Assembly (NCBI GenBank): GCA_000004985.1 | Contig: GG739304.1 | Reading direction: 5' to 3' (one strand) | From: Naegleria gruberi | Taxonomy: Eukaryota | Length of the DNA stretch: 1,923 nt | Shown: positions 1 through 1,492 of the stretch, in pieces | Position numbering within the stretch: position 1 is the first letter of the stretch | Layout of the letters: each line of letters starts with the position of its first letter | The notes under the pieces: generated by a model | Seen by the model: only the letters and a program-made list of their open reading frames with translations | What the model was told of the DNA's origin: nothing | Database searches by the model: none | Made by a program: the position numbers and the translations under genes

Positions 1-92
1 AATAATAATGATTTAATTCAATTATTAAATATTATTAATGATTTAACAAGTATTTATTATTATAATGAATTTAAAAATCAAGTAAGTTTTTA

Positions 93-113
93 TATTTAAT
101 ATTTAATATTTAA
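93..113. repeat. Short tandem repeat (TATTTAA)×3 in AT-rich spacer
   Basis: Read directly at 93-99, 100-106 and 107-113. This is low-complexity repeat content typical of Dictyostelium intergenic DNA. Confidence 0.6.
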
Positions 114-444
114 TAATTATTTAGACATTTTTAACAAATTTAAATAATATTTCAATACAACATGAAAATGAAGAAATTAAACATTTGACACAACGTTTAT
201 TATTAAAATTATTTATGAAACGTATTAAAAATTATGTTTGGTAATATAATTTATTTAATTTTCATCATTGTGCAACTCTTTTTTATGGACCTACTATGAG
301 AGGCAATATATTTATCATTATGGTCAACTTCTAACACAATAAAAATATTCATGGATGATTTATTCCTTGTTTTAACAATCATTCAATATCATTGAAAAGC
401 AGAATTGTTTAAATCGTCTTTCTGCTGTTGAATTTGGTAAATAA

Positions 445-490
445 TTTTCGAAAATGTAAGCAAATAGTTTTCGAAAATGTAAGCAAATAG
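445..490. repeat. Perfect 23-bp tandem direct duplication (TTTTCGAAAATGTAAGCAAATAG ×2). Each unit contains the 10-bp palindrome TTTTCGAAAA.
   Basis: Read directly: 445-467 and 468-490 are identical with no spacer. TTTTCGAAAA is its own reverse complement. Confidence 0.9.
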
Positions 491-566
491 TTCATCCAGT
501 AGATCTCTCATTTTCCAACAAATTTTAAGAACTGTCAAAAATCTTAATAACGCTTACTTGCCCTTT

Positions 567-776
567 TCATTCATTTGAACGATGAGTAATATAGCTATCT
601 TGAAATTCTAGCATAACAACGAACGTGTTGTGTTGAAGAGCTGCACAGCTGAATTGCCAACAATCGATTGTATTGAATTCAAATACTATTTCAGCTTGCG
701 ATGGAAATGTATTTTTGACAGTATCCAGAGTTAGATACTCTTCTTTTCTAGGAAGGAATTGGATGAAATCATTGGT
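567..776 (-). other. Unassigned open reading segment (70 codons stop-to-stop, no initiating ATG) in a relatively GC-richer block; candidate exon, pseudogene or mobile-element remnant
   Basis: Minus-strand translation: TNDFIQFLPRKEEYLTLDTVKNTFPSQAEIVFEFNTIDCWQFSCAALQHNTFVVMLEFQDSYITHRSNE*. Codon usage is Dictyostelium-like (Gln 5/5 CAA, Glu 4/5 GAA, Asp 4/4 GAT). The overlapping plus-strand open frame uses atypical codons (CGA, GTG, CAG, TTG). It is preceded on the minus strand by a pyrimidine tract plus AG (ttccttcctagaaaag|). There is no recognisable domain and no in-frame ATG near the 5' end. Confidence 0.2.
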
Positions 777-889
777 TTATACCTTGATTCTAATAATAAA
801 CATCATCACAATTTATCTATTTAATACATGTTAATAATATATTCATAATATACAATATATTCTTTAATATAATATAATGAATGATAATT

Positions 890-1492
890 TTATTGTTTAT
901 TACATTTACCACCTTTATCCTTCTTCTTTTTAATAACTTCATTTTGTTTTTTCCATTCTTCATCAACGACAGCCTTTACAGCAGCCTCAAAAACCTCACC
1001 TAAACCAGTTTGTGTTTTAGCAGAACATTCCATATAAGAGAGAGCACCAACTTTCTTTGCTAATTCTTCACCTTCTTTTCTAGTGACAGGATTAGTGACA
1101 CCTAATTGTTTTAAAGTATGAGTATCATCTCTTAAATCTAACTTGTTACCAACAATAATATATGGTAAATCAATATGTGATGTTTCTTCTAATTCTTTTA
1201 CCCATTTATCTTTAACTCTTTCAAAACTCTTTCTATCAACCAATGAAAAGAAAATTAAAAAGATATGAGCACCATTATAACTGATAGGTCTCATTGAATC
1301 ATTATCTTGACCACTTGTATCCCACAATTGTACATTATATCTATTATTTTTATATTCAACAATGGAAGTGAAATTATCAAAGGCTGTTGGTACATGTTCC
1401 TCTGGAAATTCATTCTCTGTATATGATACTAGTACACAAGTTTTACCTACACCTGTATCTCCTATATTTACACATTTAATTGTAGAGTCCAT
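890..1492 (-). CDS. Rho/Rac-family small GTPase (atypical; 200 aa, intronless). G1 GDTGVGKT, switch I T36 (YTENEFPEEHVPTAFDNF), G3 WDTSGQ, G4 NKLD, G5 ECSAK, Rho insert (DDTHTLKQLGVTNPVTRKEGEEL), polybasic C-terminus ending CNKQ.
   Basis: Complete ATG-to-TAA ORF from the six-frame track. I re-translated the minus strand by hand at the N-terminus (ATG GAC TCT ACA ATT AAA TGT GTA AAT ATA GGA GAT ACA GGT GTA GGT AAA ACT) and at switch II (TGG GAT ACA AGT GGT CAA). The protein aligns collinearly with human Rac1 from memory (IKCVxxGDxxVGKTC, FDNF, WDT[AS]GQ, FLIxFS, [TN]KLDLRDD, ECSA). Codon usage is A/T-third-position biased, as in Dictyostelium. A C/A-rich leader sits immediately 5' of the ATG on the minus strand (…aacaaaacaaacaaca ATG). 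Confidence 0.93.
   Translation of the reverse strand: MDSTIKCVNIGDTGVGKTCVLVSYTENEFPEEHVPTAFDNFTSIVEYKNNRYNVQLWDTSGQDNDSMRPISYNGAHIFLIFFSLVDRKSFERVKDKWVKELEETSHIDLPYIIVGNKLDLRDDTHTLKQLGVTNPVTRKEGEELAKKVGALSYMECSAKTQTGLGEVFEAAVKAVVDEEWKKQNEVIKKKKDKGGKCNKQ
896..901 (-). promoter_or_regulatory. Candidate polyadenylation signal AATAAA overlapping the last codons (AAT AAA CAA TAA) of the GTPase gene
   Basis: Plus strand 896-901 reads TTTATT, which is AATAAA on the coding strand. It ends 4 nt before the stop codon (1 nt before the final CAA codon). No other canonical AATAAA lies on the minus strand in the ~120 nt downstream of the stop. Dictyostelium 3' UTRs are short and AT-rich. Confidence 0.35.

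Follow-up and report, generated by a model that had tools for sequence, protein, structure and literature searches.

The 1,923-bp stretch of DNA analyzed here (the window) came from Naegleria gruberi (assembly GCA_000004985.1, contig GG739304.1) and made up a whole scaffold. Its sole long open reading frame (ORF), uninterrupted at 890 to 1492 on the minus strand and translated into 200 amino acids (aa), encoded a Rho-family small GTPase with an atypical catalytic center: Thr replaced Gly12 and Ser replaced Ala59 (Ras/Rac numbering), one residue was missing from switch II, and the catalytic Gln was retained. The substitutions and the shorter switch II suggest a poor response to ordinary RhoGAPs (GAP, GTPase-activating protein), and the protein is predicted to be competent in GTP binding and a poor substrate for arginine-finger RhoGAPs. 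We give an even chance to the model that it is a conserved atypical Rho GTPase locked in the GTP-bound state and refractory to GAPs. The GTPase gene and its landmarks were as follows:

890 to 1492, minus strand: complete intronless coding sequence of the Rho-family small GTPase, 200 aa plus TAA stop at 890 to 892
1439 to 1462, minus strand: G1/P-loop GDTGVGKT, aa 11-18 (residue-to-base mapping)
1454 to 1456, minus strand: Thr13 at the Ras/Rac Gly12 position, "tgt" on the plus strand and ACA on the coding strand
1370 to 1417, minus strand: switch I region ENEFPEEHVPTAFDNF, aa 26-41 (alignment and residue mapping)
1286 to 1324, minus strand: G3/switch II WDTSGQDNDSMRP, aa 57-69 (alignment and residue mapping)
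1136 to 1147, minus strand: intact G4 motif NKLD for guanine specificity, aa 116-119 (residue mapping)
1091 to 1129, minus strand: Rho insert region DDTHTLKQLGVTN, aa 122-134 (alignment and AlphaFold2)
1016 to 1024, minus strand: intact G5 motif SAK, aa 157-159 (residue mapping)
893 to 931, minus strand: polybasic stretch plus CaaX-like box, KKKKDKGGK-CNKQ, aa 188-200 (residue mapping)

The protein matched the Pfam family Ras (E=7e-46), and its best solved relatives were barley RACB, Arabidopsis ROPs, Rac1, and Cdc42 (E~1e-50 and 45-50% identity by HMMER), in agreement with the Rho/Rac-type GTPase proposed in an earlier note made from the sequence alone. All five G motifs were intact, namely GDTGVGKT (aa 11-18), Thr36, DTSG (aa 58-61), NKLD (aa 116-119), and SAK (aa 157-159), and the protein thus displayed the complete set of Ras-superfamily hallmarks GxxxxGK[ST], switch I Thr, DxxG, [NT]KxD, and SAK/SAL. 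The positions assigned in the earlier note to GDTGVGKT, Thr13, and Ser60 agreed to the base with the residue-to-base mapping, which likewise confirmed the retention of the Gln61 equivalent (Gln62, 1307 to 1309) and of the switch I Thr (Thr36, the G2 residue, 1385 to 1387). Gly14 occupied the Rac Ala13 position, giving a P-loop order of the Rab type (S/T-G) and not of the Rho type (G-A). Switch I kept Phe29 (equivalent to Rac Phe28) and had His33 in place of Rac Tyr32 and Ala37 in place of Val36. Switch II, with Ser60 (1313 to 1315, AGT) at the Ala59 position, was composed of 13 residues versus 14 in Rac1, corresponding to a one-residue deletion that was placed at Glu62 by HMMER and at Tyr64 by MAFFT. 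Under both alignments there was no aromatic residue at position 64, with Ser at Arg66 and Met at Leu67; the "E62D, Y64N" reading of the earlier note therefore represented only one of the two possible alignments, and it overlooked the deletion.

The Rho insert was about 3 residues shorter than that of Rac1 and about as long as that of ROPs, it aligned without gaps to barley RACB throughout, and it contained a helix at aa 124-130 in the AlphaFold2 model. This model had a mean predicted local distance difference test score of 88.3 and a predicted template modeling (TM) score of 0.86, confidence being low in the two switch regions and the C-terminal tail only; its nearest structures by Foldseek were RACB and Rac1 (root mean square deviation 1.5-2.0 Å, target-normalized TM score ~0.9). 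An insert between beta5 and alpha4 is a hallmark of the Rho family, and the protein was also placed with Rho proteins in the tree (see below). Insert, G motifs, and phylogeny together make it a genuine member of the Rho family that is neither a canonical Rac nor a ROP.

The encoded protein was an exact match to N. gruberi NEG-M XP_002668119.1 (EFC35375.1, D2W6C7), labeled "rop family small GTPase" in the database; no copy on a longer N. gruberi contig was on record. XP_002668119.1 is listed as a one-to-one ortholog of N. fowleri "Rac7" (NfowleriV212_g3733.t1) in the N. fowleri genome paper, which puts the number of Rho genes at nearly 50 for N. fowleri and >80 for N. gruberi and is silent on catalytic residues (PMC8296547). 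A literature search on this clade, or on atypical Rho proteins in Heterolobosea, turned up catalogue entries only. The gene and its orthology are thus already catalogued; no account of the atypical catalytic center or of the clade came up in that search.

The orthologs in N. lovaniensis, N. fowleri, and Willaertia magna were 87-95% identical and shared the same P-loop and switch II; within the catalytic motifs, no residue differed between N. fowleri Rac7 and the N. gruberi protein. The gene was intronless in N. gruberi, N. lovaniensis, and N. fowleri, and only the coding sequence could be aligned among these loci (85-86.5% nucleotide identity); the window flanks did not align to those of the other two species, and gene neighborhood was uninformative. 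The ratios of nonsynonymous to synonymous substitution rates (dN/dS) were calculated by the Nei-Gojobori method (NG86), with near-saturated dS values of 0.55-1.35, and were 0.048 for gruberi-lovaniensis, 0.027 for gruberi-fowleri, and 0.006 for lovaniensis-fowleri. The Thr13 codon was ACA, ACA, and ACT in the three Naegleria species, and several switch II codons also differed synonymously. The gene is under strong purifying selection.

Three kinds of search, i.e., single-sequence search against 5.8 billion proteins, exhaustive phmmer search against 1.84 billion cluster representatives, and search with a profile built from clade members, returned the same small set of 17 sequences; the profile search recovered no new clade members and no other taxa, its next matches being canonical Racs. 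The named clade members were heterolobosean only (three Naegleria species, Willaertia, and two Acrasis kona paralogs), and the rest came from environmental contigs. GD[ST]GVGKT was present in all members having a P-loop (14/17, the remaining three being N-terminally truncated or mis-modeled), and WDTSG/FDTSG was present in 16/17, the exception having a mis-modeled N-terminus. The spacing from Gly60 to Arg68 was 6 residues in 15/15 clade sequences versus 7 in 223/224 other Rho-type domains retrieved, and the shortened switch II of the clade had no Tyr64, Arg66, or Leu67. The clade signature (Rac equivalents in parentheses) was composed of N9 (V8), G14 (A13), V20 (L19), S60 (A59), loss of Y64, M67 (L67), D86 (S86), and G165 (K166), and these changes, as read from the alignments, represent a coordinated remodeling around the nucleotide pocket. 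The next-best single-domain matches showed ≤50% identity and carried the canonical GDGAVGKT and WDTAGQEDYDRLRP; Gly12 and Ala59 occurred together in 209/235 non-clade Rho-type domains retrieved.

A neighbor-joining tree was constructed with 300 bootstrap replicates, for which PDB alignments confirmed the sequences of Rac1, Rnd3, RACB, and Rab7, those of RhoA, Cdc42, RhoH, and HRas being provisional. Clade monophyly was recovered in 97% of replicates with all columns and in 88% after masking of the P-loop and switch II, and the Rho proteins including the clade were separated from HRas and Rab7 in 100%. The clade grouped with Rnd3 in 0% and with RhoH (provisional sequence) in ≤4%; because it lay inside Rho and was unrelated to either in the tree, its resemblance to Rnd3 and RhoH would be convergent. 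A plant ROP identity was rejected: RACB and Malania RAC2 fell outside the clade, next to Andalucia Rac1 and further canonical Racs. The "rop family" label reflects the best match only.

The catalytic Gln61 was kept in most clade members and lost in three: (i) Acrasis kona P0003, which had Val at this position within WDTSGVASDTMRP, not a splice artifact because WDTSGVASDTMRP was coded within a single exon, and (ii) P0008 and P0009 (169 aa), which had Asn at this position and retained neither the Rho insert nor the C-terminal tail. The other G motifs remained in place in all three. The Acrasis ortholog (L005 4001-4772) had four introns versus none in the Naegleria genes, and a RhoGEF-domain gene (GEF, guanine nucleotide exchange factor) was located ~3.6 kb upstream of it. 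No poly(A) tail, as a sign of expression, was seen on environmental contig L004.

Atypical centers were also observed outside the clade (including P0020, P0023, P0073, P0086, and P0100): among the non-clade Rho-type domains retrieved, Ser59 accompanied Ser/Thr/Asn12 in 4/9 versus 4/214 (Fisher p=8e-5, not phylogenetically corrected). The sequences retrieved suggest that atypical catalytic centers arose repeatedly in protists.

The CxxQ terminus recurred in full-length clade members (CNKQ, CRSQ, CKNQ, CKQQ, and CKTQ). The a1/a2 residues of CNKQ were polar or basic, not aliphatic, and the box was thus non-canonical. A C-terminal Gln of the CaaX box favors farnesyltransferase, and the polybasic-CxxQ tail is a plausible, putative signal for prenylation and membrane targeting. 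CxxQ also ended many heterolobosean Rho proteins (CNKQ, CNIQ, CTIQ, CVMQ, and CLLQ; window 893 to 904, P0182, P0208, P0216, and P0251), its middle residues being polar or basic in the atypical clade, and GLFGK-type tails lacking Cys ended some environmental clade members.

Rho proteins mutated at positions 12 and 61 are GTPase-deficient, and Rnd1-3, RhoH, and RhoBTB, which have alternative residues at positions 12, 59, and 61, are GTPase-deficient, GAP-insensitive, and farnesylated, the insensitivity being ascribed to steric hindrance of the arginine finger (PMC6321241). The parallel drawn in the earlier note with Rnd1-3 and RhoH at positions 12 and 59 is borne out by that survey and extends to RhoBTB. 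Under the GTP-locked, GAP-refractory model, the Naegleria protein would bind GTP and membranes normally, its beta-branched side chain at position 12 would obstruct the arginine finger of canonical RhoGAPs, and its remodeled switch II would weaken the docking of RhoGAP, Dbl-type GEFs, and RhoGDI, as expected from what Tyr64 and Arg66 are known to do. In that case most of the protein would carry GTP, intrinsic hydrolysis via the retained Gln62 would be slow at best, and control would come mainly from abundance, localization, or modification, as for Rnd and RhoH, the atypical state having presumably arisen independently of both. The model is strengthened by those clade members that have lost the catalytic Gln.

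Several observations weigh against it. Among the non-clade domains, Gln61 was kept in 5/21 with non-Gly12 versus 197/214 with Gly12 (Fisher p=7e-12, not phylogenetically corrected); because non-Gly12 Rho domains elsewhere usually lose Gln61, its retention in most clade lineages over deep divergence hints that hydrolysis still matters. The retention of Gln61 in most clade members and its loss in three point opposite ways on GTPase deficiency. Rabs are switched off by TBC dual-finger GAPs, and the Rab1 P-loop is GDSGVGKS with Ser at position 12. GDSGVGKT, the P-loop of most clade relatives, was identical to that of Rab7 (PDB 1VG1), and since Rabs have working GAPs, the earlier note was too broad in stating that, throughout the superfamily, GAP-assisted hydrolysis is blocked by any position-12 residue other than Gly. 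Rab1 is turned off by LepB in a RasGAP-like manner, with an arginine finger and the Gln70 of Rab1 itself (PMC3674391). N. gruberi is rich in Rho components and in Rho regulators of the RhoGAP and RhoGEF (Dbl and DOCK) types (PMC5499878), and the N. fowleri annotation includes genes with RhoGAP domains (PMC8296547 supplements); a dedicated regulator could therefore have evolved.

The rival reading to which these observations lead is a switch that has a Rab-like catalytic center and cycles normally, in which Ser/Thr12 would be tolerated, Gln62 would be catalytic, and a co-evolved GAP/GEF would recognize the short switch II, the substitutions altering regulator specificity and not the on/off cycle. 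In addition to the Rab7 P-loop of most clade relatives, the Gln61 that most clade lineages keep and most other non-Gly12 Rho domains lack, and the large Rho regulator repertoire of Naegleria, it is favored by the fact that P-loops of the Ser12 type are acted on by Rab GAPs, among them LepB with its arginine-finger/cis-Gln mechanism (PMC3674391), and by very strong purifying selection over the whole switch II. It is opposed by (i) the replacement of Gln61 by Val in Acrasis P0003 and by Asn in P0008/P0009 with the other G motifs retained, (ii) the association of position 12 and 59 changes with GTPase deficiency in every characterized Rho-family case (PMC6321241), and (iii) the dedicated GAP being hypothetical. 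We consider such a switch a serious possibility that falls somewhat short of an even chance.

A small chance is left for a Rho clade that converged on Rab/Rap-style catalysis, with a P-loop identical to that of Rabs, a remodeled switch II, a trans-acting GAP that would contribute catalytic residues (dual finger or Asn thumb in place of the RhoGAP arginine finger), and a dispensable cis-Gln, the dispensability being indicated by Val in Acrasis and Asn in the 169-aa subclade; if true, this would be a new regulator-substrate pairing within the Rho family.

A sequencing or assembly error, or a pseudogene decaying on a tiny orphan scaffold, is very improbable: the window was indeed an entire 1,923-bp scaffold, and the neighboring 251 to 800 held only broken ORFs plus a 23-bp tandem duplication, but the ORF was intact, the same residues were found in four species, dN/dS was 0.006-0.05, and the critical codons contained synonymous changes, whereby both were ruled out. 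The earlier note had named such an error as what would undo its claim, and this objection failed with the conservation of Thr13 and Ser60 in N. lovaniensis, N. fowleri, and Willaertia. Hardly any probability remains for the amoebozoan Rac (Dictyostelium paralog) that the earlier note had assumed, or for a true Rnd/RhoH subfamily ortholog, for which spoke the AT-rich DNA with its Rac-like protein, and the Ser59 and non-Gly12 shared with Rnd3: the protein was exactly that of N. gruberi (Discoba, Heterolobosea), the named clade members were all heterolobosean, the clade never grouped with Rnd3 and did so with RhoH in ≤4% of replicates, and Gln61 was kept, unlike in Rnd and RhoH.

The rest of the window contained one further gene fragment:

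1 to 244, plus strand: 3' portion of a second gene in tail-to-tail orientation to the GTPase gene, stop at 242 to 244 (reading frames)

This gene ran in frame 1 to nucleotide 81 and in frame 2 from 125, with a 43-nucleotide GT-AG intron at 82 to 124; its product was Asn-rich, and the fragment matched no Pfam family above the curated cut-off, with one sub-threshold match to DUF3196. The 550-bp region at 251 to 800 (both strands) had a coding-like guanine-plus-cytosine (GC) content of 0.30 versus 0.12-0.15 in other spacers and contained only broken ORFs of ≤69 aa; it showed no tRNA, Rfam, or Pfam match, no protein homologue for the 69-aa ORF, and no similarity to N. lovaniensis or N. fowleri loci, and it may be a decayed pseudogene. 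Within it, the 23-bp unit AAATAGTTTTCGAAAATGTAAGC was tandemly duplicated 2.3 times at 439 to 492 (96% identity). A GC-richer block (0.34) at 1561 to 1760, 70-270 bp upstream of the GTPase start codon, had no ORF, no Rfam match, and no significant RNA fold (z-scores -1.2 and +0.5), and it may be a 5' untranslated region or promoter region.

If the GTP-locked prediction is true, an "always-on" Rho resembling Rnd/RhoH would have evolved in heteroloboseans, including the brain-eating amoeba N. fowleri, separately from that of animals; atypical GAP-independent Rho switches would be a solution that recurs where cells possess many Rho genes, and actin regulation in Naegleria could be approached simply, through this one gene. 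Should the protein cycle instead, it would be a natural experiment on a Rho active site tolerating a position-12 side chain, relevant to the understanding of oncogenic G12 mutants. The immediate value is modest, because the evidence is at the sequence level and the gene is already in databases.

The comparison was extended to four groups of known systems: canonical Rac/ROP, Rab, RhoH, and Rnd. Canonical Rac/ROP proteins (Rac1, RACB/ROP, and other Naegleria Racs) were the closest in sequence (45-50% identity) and structure and shared the ROP-length insert, the overall G motifs, and the polybasic tail plus Cys box, but they had the canonical GDGAVGKT and WDTAGQEDYDRLRP; relative to canonical Rac/Rho/Cdc42, the Naegleria protein had Thr13 and Ser60 and no Tyr64/Arg66 equivalent, and only the Gln was retained. 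Rabs such as Rab7 shared GDSGVGKT with most clade relatives, as well as Ser/Thr12 combined with a retained switch II Gln; unlike Rabs, the clade grouped with Rho in 100% of replicates, had the Rho insert and a CxxQ tail instead of CC/CxC, and lacked the Rab-type switch II (ERF/ERY).

RhoH, an atypical Rho of vertebrate hematopoietic cells, has GDSAVGKT (Ser12), Asn at position 61, and Ala59 kept. By this provisional sequence, RhoH was alike in having Ser at position 12 but lacked most of the Rho insert (7-residue gap relative to Rac1), which the Naegleria protein has; RhoH orthology was ruled out by ≤4% bootstrap and the presence of Gln and insert. RhoH is described as GTPase-deficient and as regulated by expression and phosphorylation, and it carries a motif resembling the immunoreceptor tyrosine-based activation motif (PMC2565660).

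For the atypical Rho class, defined by alteration of positions 12, 59, and/or 61 (PMC6321241), the Naegleria protein was changed at 12 and 59 and not at 61. Rnd1-3 (RhoE) of animals shared with it the Rho fold, a non-Gly12 residue (Ser in Rnd3), Ser59, and WDTSG; GDSQCGKT and WDTSGSPYYDNVRP of Rnd3 were confirmed against PDB 1M7B, WDTSG being common to both proteins. Further likenesses would be a C-terminal box predicted to favor farnesylation over geranylgeranylation (from CxxQ in the Naegleria protein) and the resistance to arginine-finger RhoGAPs, which is predicted for the Naegleria protein (PMC6321241). In contrast, Rnd3 had Ser at position 61, where the Naegleria protein kept Gln62; Rnd proteins had a full-length switch II (SPYYDNVRP) plus N- and C-terminal extensions, while the Naegleria protein had no extensions (200 aa, starting MDSTIKC), a one-residue deletion, and a Rab-type Gly at the Rac Ala13 position. 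Rnd orthology was ruled out by 0% bootstrap with Rnd3, Gln62, and the lack of terminal extensions, and, the hosts belonging to different eukaryotic supergroups, the likeness of this heterolobosean GTPase to Rnd would be convergent.

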